Positions 8,202 through 13,793 of a DNA stretch of 35,543 nt are shown in pieces. This stretch comes from a virus (Duplodnaviria; Heunggongvirae; Uroviricota; Caudoviricetes), in the IMG/VR virus record IMGVR_UViG_2582581022_000006. One strand, given 5' to 3'. The notes beneath the pieces were generated by a model. That model had not been told where the DNA came from and did no database searches. It worked only from the letters and a program-made list of their open reading frames with translations. The position numbers were made by a program, and so were the translations under genes. The stretch's first letter is position 1. Each line of letters opens with the position of its first letter.

Positions 8202-9113
8202 TTATGCCTCCAGCCCGTTAATCTGTGGCGTCGGCTCAGTCAGCCATGAAGGCGCGGCATTGCCTGTTGGCTCATCCGGCAGGTCAAATGTGGAGCGCAG
8301 GCTACGCGCTGTGCTTTCCAGTTGACAGACCAGGCCTGCCATGAAGTCTCTGGGGGTATCAATCATGTTTTCAGCACAATATGCGCACAGCGTCTCAAAA
8401 GCGCTGGACAGTCGAACGGCGATAGCAGATTCCGCCTCAACCGCTAATGCTGTCACTTCCGCCCGCAGCTTCTTAACCTCTTCATCAGGCTCAGGCGGCT
8501 GAATACGGGATTTCTTCTCCAGTCTGGTGGAGAGTGAGTCTATTTTTTCATTTTTGTCAGCGAGTACGCGCTGTTGTGCTGCGTTGGTTTCGCGCGCTTC
8601 GCGCAGGGCCTGACGCAATTCACGTACTGACATGCGATCAACGTCGTCAAGCGTCAGGCCGGCAACTGTGCCGCCGTCGGCCAGTTCGGCAAGCTCTTCG
8701 TCGTCTTCTGTCATTAATTCGAAAAGTTTGGCTTTTCCCAAATGTGCCAACGTTGGCACATTTGGTTTCAGCGCCGGGGATAAGTATTTTGTCGATGCTT
8801 GCATCATTCTCACAGATGTCCGGTATGCCAGCCCCAACTCACTTTCAAGAATCTTTATAAACTCCCCGTGTGGTTCATTTTCCTTAAGGATTATCAGCCG
8901 CTTACCTGCCTCCAGCATGGCCTCAGCGCTCTGTGCCATATAAAAGCGTGCCTCATGGACAACACGATCGCGCTCATAGGGCAGACCATCGCCGAACTGT
9001 TGCATGATTTCCATGCGATGCTGTGTCATGGCGTTTAGACTGACATTGAGATCATCCGACAGCGGTACCTCGACGTTCAGTTCAGTGCTAACCGGTGATT
9101 TGGTGCGTCCCAT
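8202..9113 (-). CDS. Conserved early protein of unknown function (303 aa)
   Basis: Long ORF immediately upstream of the transposase; central coiled-coil-like region. Confidence 0.5.
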   Translation of the reverse strand: MGRTKSPVSTELNVEVPLSDDLNVSLNAMTQHRMEIMQQFGDGLPYERDRVVHEARFYMAQSAEAMLEAGKRLIILKENEPHGEFIKILESELGLAYRTSVRMMQASTKYLSPALKPNVPTLAHLGKAKLFELMTEDDEELAELADGGTVAGLTLDDVDRMSVRELRQALREARETNAAQQRVLADKNEKIDSLSTRLEKKSRIQPPEPDEEVKKLRAEVTALAVEAESAIAVRLSSAFETLCAYCAENMIDTPRDFMAGLVCQLESTARSLRSTFDLPDEPTGNAAPSWLTEPTPQINGLEA

Positions 9114-9432: not shown

Positions 9433-9653
9433 GACGCCTCCTTAAGGATACCGGGGGTAACTTCTTTACCTATTGCAACCGATAGATCTCGCAAAATCCG
9501 ATAAGTCAAACGACCGCGAGGTAGTTCACTTTTACCAGCCCAGCGACTGACTGCCTGGGTGACTGTTCGTGGTTCATAGCCCGCGTTAAGCGCGAACTGG
9601 CGCAAGCTACTGCCTCGTTCAACCAGCCGTGCCCGAACTTGTTGTTTGTTCAT
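9429..9653 (-). CDS. Ner/Cro-like early regulator
   Basis: ~75 aa HTH protein (SLRQFALNAGYEPRTVTQAV); first gene of the leftward early operon, divergent from the repressor. ATG at 9653; the track's 9659 start is an in-frame GTG. Confidence 0.55.
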   Translation of the reverse strand: MNKQQVRARLVERGSSLRQFALNAGYEPRTVTQAVSRWAGKSELPRGRLTYRILRDLSVAIGKEVTPGILKEAS

Positions 9654-9741
9654 ATGCACCGTGTTCCTGTTAGGTTATGATGTACTCTATTGGGTCTATT
9701 GTACACACCCAAATGAGTGTGTCAAATTGAGATATGTTCAA
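9654..9741. promoter_or_regulatory. Divergent immunity control region (operators and promoters)
   Basis: 88-bp AT-rich gap between divergent regulator genes, containing nested inverted repeats (TGTACTC...GAGTACA; ACACAC...GTGTGT). Confidence 0.55.
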
Positions 9742-10149
9742 ATGAGTACAAAAGAGAGATTGCGTGAAGTGATGGATGCTAATGGCATGACAATAAAGGC
9801 ATTATCTAACTTATCAAAAATTCCATATCGCTCACTTCAAAACTATTTGCGTGGAGAGAGAGAACCAAACGCAGAGGCTCTTGTTGCGCTAAGCACCCAT
9901 TTGGGTGTATCGATCGATTGGCTACTTACCGGTAAAGAACATATTCCATCTAAAGAAATTGTTGCTGTACCAACACAACATCAATTCAGCCCGTCAGACC
10001 TTAAAATGCTTGAACTTCTAAACCAGTTAGATCCTGAGGTTCGGCGAGATCTCATGCGAGGCGCTGAAGAAAAACAGCGTGTGATTGAGATGGAAAAACA
10101 ACTGAAGGAATTATCCGCAACGATTGAGCGGTTAAAAAATGTGGGTTAA
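9742..10149 (+). CDS. Prophage repressor, HTH XRE family, no peptidase domain
   Basis: 136 aa from the ATG at 9742. N-terminal HTH (MTIKALSNLSKIPYRSLQNYLRGEREPNAEALVALSTHLGVSIDWLL). The track's 9646 start is a TTG extension overlapping the Ner-like gene. Confidence 0.7.
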   Translation: MSTKERLREVMDANGMTIKALSNLSKIPYRSLQNYLRGEREPNAEALVALSTHLGVSIDWLLTGKEHIPSKEIVAVPTQHQFSPSDLKMLELLNQLDPEVRRDLMRGAEEKQRVIEMEKQLKELSATIERLKNVG

Positions 10150-10219: not shown

Positions 10220-11227
10220 ATGTCTGAGCAGACCATTGAAGTTAAACACGTTGTAGTTCACATTTTAGACAAACAACAAAATGGAGACGCTTCTGAGAGA
10301 TTGAGTCCTGAAGAAGGTCTAGTTACTGAAGCCTCCCAGCGCCTTATAAACGATATTTGTGCAAAATATGCAGGACGCACAGGTAAAGGTTATGGCTATT
10401 TTGAAGGCGATACGGATAACTATCCTATGGAACGAATGGCTGGGGACTTTCTCGAAGGTGTTGATGATTTCTACCAAAGTTCCTGCCGAATGATGCATCA
10501 CCTGACGGAACGTTCTCAGCGAGAAAACATGGCTACTGGTGGTTATGTTCTTTTTGCAAATATCGTGATAGGACACAATGAACACCTGTTGATAGCTATT
10601 GTAAGCGCTACCATTGGATCCACTGTCACAGATGATTTTAACATCCAAGATAGTACCTATCTTGATATTGCTAAGCTGCGTATGGCTGGGCGCATTGACT
10701 TAACCGCGTGGGAAAGTGGCGCAGAGCGCTATATCAGTTTTCTTAAGGGGCAAGGTAATGTTTCAAACTATTTTAAACAGTTCCTCGGCTGTAATGATGT
10801 CTTAATCGCCAAACGAGAGTCTGAAAAGTTACGTGACGTTTTAAAAGCATTTGCGGCAGAGAAAGGACTTGACGGCGCTGAAAAAGATGCATTTCTTAAG
10901 AGTGCGTTTGAACACTTACATGCACTAAGTAAGGCTGGTGAACCACTTAGTCTTGAAACCCTTGTTAATGCCATTTGGCCCCAGGCTCCCGAGGAGTTAT
11001 CTGGTAAACTTGCTGCTGAAGAGTTGGAGTTATCGGATGGCTTCGTTCCTGATGGTCGAGTCATTCGGGCTCTGGTATCTTTTAAAGGCAAGTCTAAATA
11101 TTGGGAACTTAAGTTTGACCGGGAAGGGAAAACTGAAGGCTATATTGATTATGATCCGGAAACAAATATTATCACCCTACGTAATGTACCTGAAGAATTT
11201 AGGGAAATGTGGATGACTGAGGTTTAA
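10220..11227 (+). CDS. YejK/NdpA-like nucleoid-associated-domain protein (NA37 family)
   Basis: 335 aa, same length as E. coli YejK. Central block TYLDIAKLRMAGRIDLTAWESGAERYISFLKGQ...FKQFLGCND aligns with the YejK core [20 protein letters not shown]...YLTFLKGR...FMDFLG. RBS AAGGTGG 7 nt upstream; AT-rich. Confidence 0.65.
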   Translation: MSEQTIEVKHVVVHILDKQQNGDASERLSPEEGLVTEASQRLINDICAKYAGRTGKGYGYFEGDTDNYPMERMAGDFLEGVDDFYQSSCRMMHHLTERSQRENMATGGYVLFANIVIGHNEHLLIAIVSATIGSTVTDDFNIQDSTYLDIAKLRMAGRIDLTAWESGAERYISFLKGQGNVSNYFKQFLGCNDVLIAKRESEKLRDVLKAFAAEKGLDGAEKDAFLKSAFEHLHALSKAGEPLSLETLVNAIWPQAPEELSGKLAAEELELSDGFVPDGRVIRALVSFKGKSKYWELKFDREGKTEGYIDYDPETNIITLRNVPEEFREMWMTEV

Positions 11228-11229
11228 TC

Positions 11230-12435
11230 GTGGCGATTTCATTTGAGATGCTGACAGATCTGTATCGTCGTATGGAATTCCAAGAGGGGTTTCGTGTCGG
11301 TTCGCTGTTGCTCTTAGATCAGTCCGATTGTGATCTGGTTGATACTTTGCTTGATGATCCTCGTGAATATGGTCTTTCTATTGATACAGGCACTATCGCT
11401 CCAGGTAACACGATCATCCTACGTGTGACGTCACCACGGAGTGGACTGGGACTTGTGTTTTCCACCCATGAAAAATTGCTAAATGCTCCAAAGCATCAGT
11501 GCCTTGAGCCAGCTAATTACTTCATCCTAGAAACAAAGTTTCGTAATGATGATGAAGATATCCCCGTTTTCATCAGCAACTACCGGAAGATTCTCGAGTT
11601 CGTTAACCTGCTAAAAGAGGCCGCGGCCTACTTTGATAACTCAACTTGTCAGTTAGTTTTTCTGAAAAAAGAAGTTATCAAGCTATTACCGCACTTCGCT
11701 GCAGAAAATGTACAAAATTTGCAAAGAGAGTATCTTGATAACCTTATAGCTTGTTTCAATGATGATACCCATAAGGATCAGAAGCTAGATATTCTGATTG
11801 AAAGTATCCAAGCAGTTAGTGATGGAATTGATTCACCTCTAGTATTCGCTTATTTACTGGACAATATTCAGCGTCTGCATGAAAAGTTTCTGAAAGGGTA
11901 TCGTATCTACTCTTCTGGATTCTCTTATGACAAAGTAATGGATCAACTGCGTGCTGCAAAAGTCGAAGAAATGGGTAAAATCCACAAAGCGTTTTCAGAT
12001 ATCCAGAACCATATACTTGGCATTCCTGTTGCCTCTGTTATCGTAGCTACCCAATTCAAAGTGGCTACGAAATGGTCAGGCCAAGGGATAACAAACACAA
12101 TAATTCTTCTGGGATGCATTTTTGCTGCAACGTTAATCTGGCTGGCACTTTCGAACCAGATGCAATCTATAAAGGCCTTAGGCGAAGAAATTGAATACAA
12201 AGAAAAACAGATTAATAAGGAATATTCCTTCATTAAAGATGACGTGGCTGGTGTATTTAGCAGTATTTCTGCGCGACTAGACACGCAGAAACGTACGTTC
12301 TGGATTATACGTGGTGTTCTAGTTATGGGAATTATTACCGCTATCACTGTTTATTTTTGGTACACAAAACCAGCCCTTGACTTCATGCAGTACTTGATTC
12401 ACTGCATGAAGTCTTACTATTCGGTCAAAAGTTGA
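11230..12435 (+). CDS. Hypothetical protein with two C-terminal transmembrane helices (candidate membrane effector)
   Basis: 401 aa; GTG start 2 nt after the upstream stop. Hydrophobic helices ITNTIILLGCIFAATLIWLAL and FWIIRGVLVMGIITAITVYFWY; soluble N-terminal ~280 aa with no recognised motif; AT-rich. Confidence 0.6.
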   Translation: MAISFEMLTDLYRRMEFQEGFRVGSLLLLDQSDCDLVDTLLDDPREYGLSIDTGTIAPGNTIILRVTSPRSGLGLVFSTHEKLLNAPKHQCLEPANYFILETKFRNDDEDIPVFISNYRKILEFVNLLKEAAAYFDNSTCQLVFLKKEVIKLLPHFAAENVQNLQREYLDNLIACFNDDTHKDQKLDILIESIQAVSDGIDSPLVFAYLLDNIQRLHEKFLKGYRIYSSGFSYDKVMDQLRAAKVEEMGKIHKAFSDIQNHILGIPVASVIVATQFKVATKWSGQGITNTIILLGCIFAATLIWLALSNQMQSIKALGEEIEYKEKQINKEYSFIKDDVAGVFSSISARLDTQKRTFWIIRGVLVMGIITAITVYFWYTKPALDFMQYLIHCMKSYYSVKS

Positions 12436-13195
12436 GGATAATGAGTTCCTTCTTGCGACTGGATTTGCCAGTGATCTTGAGGTTGTAGCTGATATCAACC
12501 GACTGAATATTTAGACCGTTGAATGCCTGCCGCATTTCCGGGATATCGTTCACCGATATAATCATCTTCCCTTTGATCCTGCGTGCTAAATCTGCCATAT
12601 GATCATAATTTTCTAGTCCGAACTCCACACCATAACCTTCCGTTCCCCAGTATGGAGGGTCACAGTAGAACAACGTATGCGGGCGATCATATCGTTCTAT
12701 GCACTGTTGCCAGTCCATGTGTTCTATGACCGTTCTGGAAAGCCGCAGGTGTGCCGCTGACAGTTCTTCTTCAATACGCAGCAGGTTGAAGCGTGGCGGG
12801 GATATGGTGGAGGTACCAAAGCTGTGCTCCGCCACCTTGCCTCCAAACGCCTGCTTCTGAAGGTAGTAGAACCGTGCTGCACGCTGGATATCCGTCAGTG
12901 TTTCTTCCGGGGTGATCTGCAGCCATTTGTAGATCTGCCGGCTGACCAGCGCCCATTTGAACTGGCGTACAAATTCTTCCAGATGATGTTTTACCACCCG
13001 ATACAGGTTCACCAGTTCACCGTTGATATCATTAATGACTTCGATCTTGCCGGGTACCTTAAGAAAATAGAGCGCTGCTGCCCCACAAAACGGCTCCACA
13101 TAACATTCATGCGCCGGAAACAGCGGCAGGATGTGTTTTGCAAGGCGGCGTTTGCCACCAATCCATGGAACGATGGGTAATGTCTGCATTTTCAT
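12425..13195 (-). CDS. DNA adenine methyltransferase, Dam family
   Basis: 256 aa; motif I FCGAAA and catalytic DPPY present. Convergent with the preceding gene, 11-bp 3' overlap. Confidence 0.85.
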   Translation of the reverse strand: MKMQTLPIVPWIGGKRRLAKHILPLFPAHECYVEPFCGAAALYFLKVPGKIEVINDINGELVNLYRVVKHHLEEFVRQFKWALVSRQIYKWLQITPEETLTDIQRAARFYYLQKQAFGGKVAEHSFGTSTISPPRFNLLRIEEELSAAHLRLSRTVIEHMDWQQCIERYDRPHTLFYCDPPYWGTEGYGVEFGLENYDHMADLARRIKGKMIISVNDIPEMRQAFNGLNIQSVDISYNLKITGKSSRKKELIILNF

Positions 13196-13442
13196 AATCT
13201 GTAAGCCTTTTACAATTATAAAAAATATGGCAGGCTAGTCTGGTCTCGCGAGACTGACTGAACCTCGGTCGGCTCACAGCGCATTCCTGTGGGGCGATGG
13301 CCAGCCCGGTGTTCGGGTACCGGGCTGGTCGTTCTTTCAAAGTCATCATGCAGTGCACGTTTACATCTTCACTATTAACGCTGTTTAAAATCCGTATCCC
13401 GCCACATTTGTGATGCTGTCTCCACCAAACGAGGAGACACAC
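13196..13442. promoter_or_regulatory. Intergenic control region between the methylase gene and the lysis operon
   Basis: Perfect 12-bp palindrome GTCTCGCGAGAC (13243-13254) and a 9-bp inverted repeat with 8-nt loop (13302-13327). RBS GAGGAG precedes the holin start. Confidence 0.4.
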
Positions 13443-13793
13443 ATGAAAAACCTGAAAAAATTCATTCCCCCTGTTAAAAAACCTCGCCTCAGCGGCTGGC
13501 TGCTGACCTCAGTGCTGTTGCTGGGCATCATCGCTCTGGTCTCGCCACAGCAGTTGCCTGTTGTGATCTACAAGCTGGCACTTATCACGCTGGCAGCAGT
13601 GCTGGGTTACTGGCTTGACCGTTCGCTCTTCCCCAAAGCCCGTCCCGGTCAGTACCTGAAACATGACGACAGGCTGATGGCTGAAGGGCGTTTCCCGGTA
13701 CAGACCGGCCTTCACCTGGTGTTTTCTGCTGCGTTAATCCGCCGTGCACTGATTGTTGCAGCGGTCTGCCTGGCTGTGGCAACAGGACTGTGA
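13443..13793 (+). CDS. Holin candidate (about three transmembrane segments)
   Basis: ~116 aa from ATG 13443, with three hydrophobic segments; immediately upstream of the endolysin. Confidence 0.55.
   Translation: MKNLKKFIPPVKKPRLSGWLLTSVLLLGIIALVSPQQLPVVIYKLALITLAAVLGYWLDRSLFPKARPGQYLKHDDRLMAEGRFPVQTGLHLVFSAALIRRALIVAAVCLAVATGL

Follow-up and report, generated by a model that had tools for sequence, protein, structure and literature searches.

The mom gene of phage Mu encodes an acyltransferase-superfamily enzyme turning adenine into N6-carbamoylmethyl (acetamido) adenine, and the gene is expressed late and under tight control on account of the harm it does to the host (Drozdz et al., PMC3299994). 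Pseudomonas phage B3 has a homologue of Mu Com, but a methyltransferase replaces Mom (Drozdz et al., PMC3299994); in this phage the Mu Com-like zinc-finger gene (ORF47) overlaps the start of the methyltransferase gene ORF48, whose activity had not been demonstrated experimentally as of that paper. A methyltransferase gene of the same kind occurs in the DNA considered here, a 35,543-nt viral sequence of the Caudoviricetes (IMG/VR record IMGVR_UViG_2582581022_000006; the whole stretch is referred to below as the window). The product of this open reading frame (ORF), called the methylase or dam in what follows, is an intact, selectively maintained and solitary S-adenosylmethionine (AdoMet)-dependent alpha (D12) DNA amino-methyltransferase, and the region directly upstream of the gene carries a conserved, previously uncatalogued structured RNA candidate, which is well supported computationally. 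The methylase gene itself is ordinary and common, and solitary phage methylases are already familiar; the upstream element and the link between com and dam, both absent from the first-pass annotation of this DNA, are what the analysis adds.

The locus resembles that of B3 in the sequence of the enzyme (66% amino acid identity over 254 residues), in its Mu-like transposable phage background, and in the structured element, which precedes many relatives of the same D12 clade. It differs in that the com gene of B3 overlaps the methylase start and lies amid tail genes, whereas the window has no com and places the methylase in the interval between the repressor and the lysis genes. With Mu com-mom, the locus shares the character of an accessory DNA-modification gene of a transposable phage, the presence of a Com homologue directly upstream of the gene in relatives of the methylase, and a translation start sequestered in RNA structure, which in the window is predicted; it differs in that Mom is an unrelated enzyme, the window lacks both com and a GATC/OxyR region (13047-13564 being free of GATC), and the gene has another genome position. 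E. coli Dam (EcoDam), S. pneumoniae DpnM, and T4 Dam are only 18-29% identical to the methylase, which is not at the chromosomal dam locus. M.CbeI (PDB 7M6B), on which the DNA transformation of C. bescii depends, is an alpha-class enzyme with a DPPY motif and methylates N4 of cytosine (PMC8616854). The prophage non-specific adenine methyltransferases Hia5, Hin1523, and Nma1821 (and M.EcoGII) give broad protection from restriction, and form a different subfamily, B3 ORF48 lying outside the 1000 closest homologues of Hia5 (PMC3299994); a Hia5/Hin1523-type non-specific enzyme was set aside as a model for the B3 ORF48 clade. M.EcoGV and M.EcoVT2Dam of Stx phages were also set aside as characterised relatives, the 933W enzyme being a 175-aa protein of the HP1/T1 type and of a different family.

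Conserved structured element upstream of the methylase

The window shares the 165 nt before the methylase ATG almost unchanged with Klebsiella phage KP12 and E. coli phage PhiKM despite a different next upstream gene, and between the window and KP12 the leader retains ~87% identity while synonymous sites of the adjacent gene differ at ~49%. A structure defined by hand (helices P0 to P4; Table 1) accommodates the 23 enteric loci that can be aligned over the leader with 92% paired cells and compensatory changes in 15 of 34 pairs, and its covariation score is 0.259, against 0.136 for shuffled alignments and at most 0.10 when the structure is slid. A pattern scan of IMG/VR returned 78 contigs, 72 of them with a methylase start 90-140 nt downstream on the same strand. 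The covariance model R1, built from the enteric alignment, recovers the element from 82 of 100 sources, in each case on the methylase-sense (dam-sense) strand and directly upstream of dam or, if present, of com; in the window it gives a single match (13184-13355, minus strand, 173 bits). In the 84-row R1 alignment, 33 of the 34 pairs show compensatory changes and the score rises to 0.464, against 0.147 shuffled (0 of 500 reach the observed value) and at most 0.06 slid; fitting this alignment to the structure inflates the pair counts, which tempers the case for the leader, and the controls fall far below the observed score.

Covariation extends over the separate helices. P0 exchanges GAAC/GUUC for GAGC/GCUC and others, all 12 of 12 pairs covary in P1, and P2 covaries in distant relatives. 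The core of P3 is a perfect 12-bp palindrome, replaced by GTTCTCGAGAAC or GTCATCGATGAC in relatives, and covariation also reaches the outer stem. Folding of the dam-sense strand gives a z-score of -4.2. With E allowed up to 1, Rfam 15 gave nothing for 12300-13600 of the window, and 10 diverse related loci had no match reaching the gathering score; no tRNA or tmRNA identity was found for the element, and no described RNA motif for the leader was found in the literature. A conserved small leader ORF was also rejected, as an ATG frame occurs only in the E. coli/Klebsiella/Mixta group and insertions and deletions break the frame elsewhere. A natural truncation occurs in Pantoea stewartii (locus L007, 5881-6012), where only the last ~45 nt of the leader (AGCCTGCC...AAAAGGCTTAC...ATG) are found and unrelated sequence takes the place of the three-way junction.

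Within the element, segment X (the 3' strand of P2 with four further nucleotides) can pair with the ribosome-binding-site (RBS) region of the methylase. Its partner, GGCUUACAG, starts inside the AAGG Shine-Dalgarno sequence and stops 3 nt before the AUG, and AAAAGGCTTAC is unchanged across the 23 enteric loci. The X:RBS helix is viable on the dam-sense strand only, because in the enteric loci it comprises 151 Watson-Crick and 50 G-U cells against 4 A-C cells. Compensatory variants of this helix occur in distant relatives, including CUGCAAG:CUUGCAG, CACGGUUUC:GAGAUCGUG (9/9 pairs, p ~0.004), CCGUUGGC:GCCAAUGG, CUGCUUUC:GAAAGCA, and CUGCAGG:CCUUGCAG, and the partner of X always lies just 5' of the dam or com start codon. 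Since segment X is shared, P2 and the X:RBS helix are mutually exclusive. Constrained folds of the window leader with P0, P1, and P2 (ON-like, -48.7 kcal/mol) and with P1 and the alternative X:RBS helix, ALT (OFF-like, -49.8 kcal/mol), are nearly isoenergetic, and the unconstrained minimum-energy fold holds the X:RBS helix in about half of the 23 enteric relatives. The AAGG region is predicted to be covered both by the 9-bp X:RBS helix and by the 5-bp P4. On these models the leader seems to have the architecture of a translational riboregulator, predicted to hide the RBS.

Table 1. Coordinates of the methylase, its upstream element, and adjoining features in the window.
Feature	Position	Strand	Details
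Methyltransferase coding sequence	12425-13195	-	256 aa, alpha-class D12 DNA amino-methyltransferase
Motif X WIGGK; motif I EPFCGAA; motif IV DPPY	residues 11-15; 34-40; 179-182		Within the methyltransferase coding sequence
Convergent overlap, 11 bp	12425-12435		Methylase stop region and 3' end of the membrane-protein gene (11230-12435, +); ORF coordinates
Structured element, helices P0-P4	13196-13345	-	Candidate 5' leader of methylase mRNA; conservation and covariance model
Three-way junction	13260-13334	-	P0 13331-13334/13260-13263; P1 13319-13328/13301-13310; P2 13287-13291/13275-13279
P3 hairpin/palindrome	13237-13259	-	Core GTCTCGCGAGAC at 13243-13254
Segment X, CUGUGAGCC	13271-13279	-	3' strand of P2 plus 4 nt, candidate anti-RBS; 9/9 pairs with 13199-13207
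RBS region, AAGGCUUACAG	13199-13209	-	Directly 5' of AUG (13195); pairs with X (ALT helix) or with AGCCU 13232-13236 (P4)
Conserved box, TTTAAACAGCGTTAATAG	13372-13389	-	Candidate promoter/activator site upstream of the structured element
Cargo pair	10220-12435	+	NA37/YejK-like nucleoid-associated protein (Pfam NA37, 272 bits) and 401-aa membrane protein

Identity and target of the methylase

The methylase matches Pfam PF02086 (D12) with 98.4 bits against a cutoff of 22 over residues 11-234 of 256, and it has the alpha-class layout of an N-terminal AdoMet half, an inserted recognition domain, and a C-terminal catalytic half. The reading frame, its overlap with the transmembrane-protein gene, motif I, and DPPY had all been proposed in the first-pass annotation and are borne out: the overlap is annotated likewise in an identical RefSeq prophage, the catalytic motifs are intact on alignment, and D179-P-P-Y182 is unchanged in 54 of 54 family representatives. 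The AdoMet motif I reads F36-C-G38-A-A40 in place of the textbook FxGxG; the phenylalanine and the first glycine are conserved in the clade, and the second glycine position is occupied by A, G, or S; the motif is probably functional despite this departure. The gene is under strong purifying selection (ratio of nonsynonymous to synonymous rates, dN/dS, 0.065-0.082). As to which METHYLTRANSFERASE this is, the nearest phage proteins are those of KP12 (92% identity), PhiKM (88%), Curvibacter phage TJ1 (67%), and B3 (ORF48, 66%), followed by Burkholderia phiE125 gp27 and its relatives (65%) and Vibrio phage VP882 (64%), which places the methylase in the B3 ORF48/phiE125 gp27/VP882 clade and outside the host Dam lineage. 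Large proteins of 800-2500 aa with two to four related methyltransferase stretches (P0123, P0135, P0144, P0147, P0156, P0177, P0236, and others) were also encountered and are presumably multi-methylase fusions of phages or plasmids.

The designation "Dam-family" that the gene had received can be kept in part. The D12 class stands and the NCBIfam Dam-family subfamily model TIGR00571 is passed, if marginally (116.9 against a cutoff of 114.85), but a GATC-type Dam is not supported, since the protein scores 69 bits where the E. coli Dam equivalog NF008152 requires 441 and lacks the contact residues. In the EcoDam-DNA structure attributed to Horton et al. in 2006, K9 and R124 are said to read both G:C pairs of GATC, with L122 and P134 also making contacts. 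Pairwise and profile alignments both set EcoDam K9 against Pro10 of the methylase, R124 sits in a three-residue insertion that is missing from the methylase family, leaving a recognition hairpin three residues shorter, and the Dam/DpnM hairpin signature FNVP(F/Y)GRY becomes FGTSTISPPRF. The family profile scores DpnM at 134, M.CbeI at 131, and EcoDam at 116 bits, and the fold match to M.CbeI is as good as that to Dam or DpnM. Because the N4-cytosine enzyme M.CbeI also has DPPY and is just as close, neither the target sequence nor, strictly, the target base follows from family and fold. M.CbeI is presumably part of a restriction-modification system, and its site is taken here to be GGCC, which the paper cited above for the enzyme does not give.

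No experimentally determined target was found in the literature for any member of the clade. Woods et al. (2002, J Bacteriol 184:4003) reportedly detected N6-methyladenine in phiE125 virion DNA, which favours adenine as the target base. REBASE lists the target of Photorhabdus luminescens plu3449, a probable orthologue of the methylase, as "?", and gives a second solitary enzyme of this strain a predicted GATC target (PMC6092372). M.EcoMIV, a D12 enzyme of a prophage in E. coli ST131, has no homologue above 65% identity with a determined site and no assigned motif (PMC4659465). The methylase is a D12 enzyme that most likely acts on adenine; GATC is a possible but unsupported target, and the actual one is probably other than this classical site.

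GATC itself is depleted in the window (95 sites against 137 +/- 11 expected), and a 6.1-kb stretch without any GATC (2551-8635; P ~8e-6, Poisson) covers the early transposition/replication operon, while none of the other 15 four-base palindromes has a P below ~0.007. Three GATC sites fall within 17 bp (37-53) at the left edge of the window.

Com coupling, genomic setting, and cargo genes

Com-like genes were sought by a motif scan for small CxxC...CxxC ORFs and then by tblastn with six Com homologues. Of 80 related genome loci, 20 have a Com-like CxxC...CxxC ORF directly upstream of the methylase, and one extra locus has a Com-like gene 1.2 kb upstream. Com-dam operons (L024, L033, L039, L042, L043, L045, L048, L051, L056, L057, L061, L062, L066, L072, L073, L076, L078, L079, and L083, and also L044) are thus far seen to be widespread among prophages of Betaproteobacteria and methanotrophs. 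The com-bearing loci belong mostly to Betaproteobacteria and methanotrophs, with methylase identities of 66-76%, and in about half of the com-dam loci the structured element lies upstream of com. In the window neither approach gave a Com-like gene: no CxxC...CxxC ORF lies upstream of the methylase, and the best tblastn hit (E 0.026) falls in an unrelated place. The recurrent coupling to com ties the methylase clade to the mom paradigm of a harmful, late, and translationally gated modification gene.

The window represents a BcepMu-like transposable E. coli prophage. Leftward early genes encode Mor, Gam, and transposase (a Mor-family gene lies at 1410-1799), the repressor gene is at 9646-10149, and rightward from 13410 come the genes for holin, lysis, head, and tail, with the methylase between repressor and holin. 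The methylase is an accessory gene in a variable slot, because the same interval holds three unrelated small genes in BcepMu, and in KP12 and PhiKM it holds the methylase with other neighbours. Megablast finds the gene in 535 of 5426 complete E. coli genomes, where RefSeq labels the product "DNA adenine methylase"; Enterobacterales hold thousands of proteins with ~90% identity, and 673 clusters of a 50%-identity library match with E below 1e-30. Strain RIVM_C036569 has 100% copies of the methylase and the cargo pair in the same prophage gene order, beside a truncated hycH. The left edge of the window (general edge region 1-1250) carries three tRNA genes (Arg-tct, Lys-ttt, and Met-cat) at 192-432 on the minus strand, whereas coordinate mapping places hyfR and the truncated hycH, and no tRNA genes, on the matching flank of RIVM_C036569; the window therefore apparently comes from a different insertion site.

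The absence of an adjacent restriction gene, claimed in the first-pass annotation together with the suggestion that a linked nuclease be looked for, agrees with the neighbourhood data. A domain search found no nuclease domain in the window neighbours, cargo pair included, and clustering of the neighbours in 80 related loci yielded no recurrent partner, nuclease or other, only lysis and tail genes and many singletons; these neighbours were judged by clustering, and some of the variable ones were domain-scanned. Both cargo-pair proteins have weak, below-cutoff matches to NCBIfam DS1_1/DS1_2 (DS-1 anti-phage), and the membrane protein has a weak PADLOC match to KwaA. The pair occurs in only 19 of the 5426 E. 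coli genomes, each time beside the methylase, and from this difference in distribution it is separate cargo, not functionally tied to the methylase.

Proposed function and alternative explanations

Slightly favoured, at a little better than an even chance, is the view that the methylase is a tightly gated lytic-phase DNA-modification gene with an RBS-hiding leader, a functional analogue of Mu mom. The methylase would be off in the lysogen; in lytic development, a factor or condition would favour the P2 conformation, the RBS would be freed, and the methylase would be translated, with a ligand, a phage protein, or co-transcriptional kinetics as candidates for what shifts the balance. The enzyme would then methylate replicating phage DNA, most likely at adenine N6 and in a motif that is probably not simply GATC, and progeny DNA would thereby be protected from restriction in the next host, so that the locus would be a functional counterpart, lacking Com, of the Mu com-mom module. 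This lytic-phase anti-restriction reading draws on the absence of a nuclease partner, the occurrence of the gene in transposable and other temperate phages, the coupling to Com, the predicted RBS sequestration, and silence in lysogens; protection of phage DNA appears, by analogy, to be the most plausible role. Silence in lysogens is seen in P. luminescens plu3449, a solitary 771-bp gene with D12 domains in prophage P80 that is expressed at <0.001 times gyrB (PMC6092372), and M.EcoMIV is weakly transcribed (PMC4659465). More tentative, and falling well short of even odds, is the further reading that the three-way junction is a sensor which, together with the RBS switch, forms a new class of cis-regulatory RNA, ranging over prophages of Beta- and Gammaproteobacteria and responding to a metabolite or to a phage or host factor, with an enzyme of non-GATC and possibly relaxed specificity.

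Several points weigh against the view of a gated anti-restriction gene. The anti-restriction role is drawn by analogy, plu3449 and M.EcoMIV are linked to the methylase by description, and adenine is a predicted target base, M.CbeI being equally close. The status of the element as an mRNA leader is a prediction; a TATAAT lies 18 nt before the ATG in the window and is not conserved in relatives, and if transcription started there most of the element would be left outside the mRNA. In the 84 sequences P1 has 128 A-C against 41 G-U cells on the dam-sense strand, which favours the plus strand, the eight bases 5' of P0 have a mean of 4.5 adenines (a U-tract on the plus strand), and part of the element may be a plus-strand terminator or small RNA.

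These last observations feed a rather unlikely alternative, in which the element is a divergent plus-strand small RNA or terminator, and/or a DNA operator for a phage regulator of the dam promoter. It can account for the wobble bias of P1 and for the tract rich in U, for a plus-strand fold as stable as that of the other strand (z = -4.1), for the promoter-like TTTTCA-16-TACAAT on the plus strand at 13189-13216, and for a P3 core that is palindromic through its "loop" in three lineages, as a dimeric DNA-binding site would be; yet relatives do not keep that promoter, the other late operons have no P3 palindrome of their own upstream, the bias in P4 is the reverse (23 G-U and 3 A-C cells, favouring the dam-sense strand), and the X:RBS helix covaries across unrelated sequences with G-U pairs that would be A-C on the plus strand. 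Folding energy was rejected as a guide to the functional strand, both strands giving z ~-4.2 and the wobble counts differing by helix. Read on the plus strand, 13299-13345 comprises the P1 stem CCAGCCCGGT/ACCGGGCTGG followed by TCGTTCTTTC and resembles an intrinsic terminator; P1 may serve as a terminator, keeping read-through that comes from the repressor side antisense across dam out of the holin operon, or may be part of an antisense RNA. The P3 core could be a protein operator; the idea that it is a common Mor or late-activator site was discarded, as nothing similar occurs elsewhere in the window. A consensus scan found no sigma-70-like promoter on the minus strand upstream of the methylase, and no activator binding site was identified there. 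The box TTTAAACAGCGTTAATAG, kept in enteric relatives whatever gene adjoins, may be a promoter or activator site for dam or a late promoter of the lysis operon; with one copy only in the window, it was rejected as a repeated late-promoter element. The mRNA-leader and the plus-strand/operator readings are mutually compatible.

The main rival for the enzyme itself, unlikely but stronger than the other alternatives, is a phage Dam specific for GATC that adds to host Dam while the phage replicates rapidly, like the Dam enzymes of T4, T2, and P1, so that full methylation avoids cutting by MutHLS or serves packaging or gene timing. The bare passage of the TIGR00571 cutoff and the database name DNA adenine methylase speak for it, as do the three GATC enzymes among the nearest solved structures and a basic K120, common at the start of the recognition hairpin, which could stand in for R124; the GATC under-representation and the GATC-free early region show that GATC matters to the phage, and this depletion is notable under the gated anti-restriction view as well. 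It is opposed by the failed Dam equivalog, by the loss of K9, R124, and NVPxGRY together with the shortened hairpin, by the absence of a REBASE target for the probable Photorhabdus orthologue when another solitary enzyme of that strain received GATC, and by the redundancy that a second GATC enzyme would largely have in E. coli. Close relatives also occur in Burkholderia and Pseudomonas phages, whose hosts are not known to possess Dam, so that supplementing host Dam cannot be a general role. Improbable is a regulator of lysogenic conversion that reprograms host or prophage expression epigenetically, a role akin to the modulation of phage gene expression raised in the first-pass annotation and one that would fit the regulation of genes by orphan Dam and CcrM; a putative adenine methylase gene of B. 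pseudomallei phage phi1026b is among the moron genes expressed in RNA-seq (PMC2920897). Nevertheless, the probable Photorhabdus orthologue and the ST131 prophage enzyme are nearly silent or weak in lysogens, the methylomes show no extra motif, and the predicted RBS-sequestering leader and the association with com in relatives favour tight repression over constitutive expression. Very improbable is a three-gene defence system in which the methylase is the self-protecting modification partner of the NA37-like and membrane-protein pair: the genes are adjacent with their 11-bp overlap and the pair weakly resembles the DS-1 proteins, but the pair is found in 19 genomes against 535 for the methylase, the methylase keeps its own upstream element and has unrelated neighbours in KP12, PhiKM, and 80 other loci, the convergent orientation allows no operon, and both proteins of the pair lack a nuclease domain.

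The methylase clade is very common (~10% of complete E. coli genomes) and is routinely labelled Dam though the GATC-reading residues are missing, and methylome annotation pipelines may therefore mis-assign it. A non-GATC and possibly relaxed specificity, if true, would imply broad anti-restriction protection. The upstream element is a structured RNA candidate absent from Rfam that seems to govern a DNA-modifying enzyme of potential toxicity, and the leader would give a Com-independent counterpart of the classic translational control of Mu com-mom.

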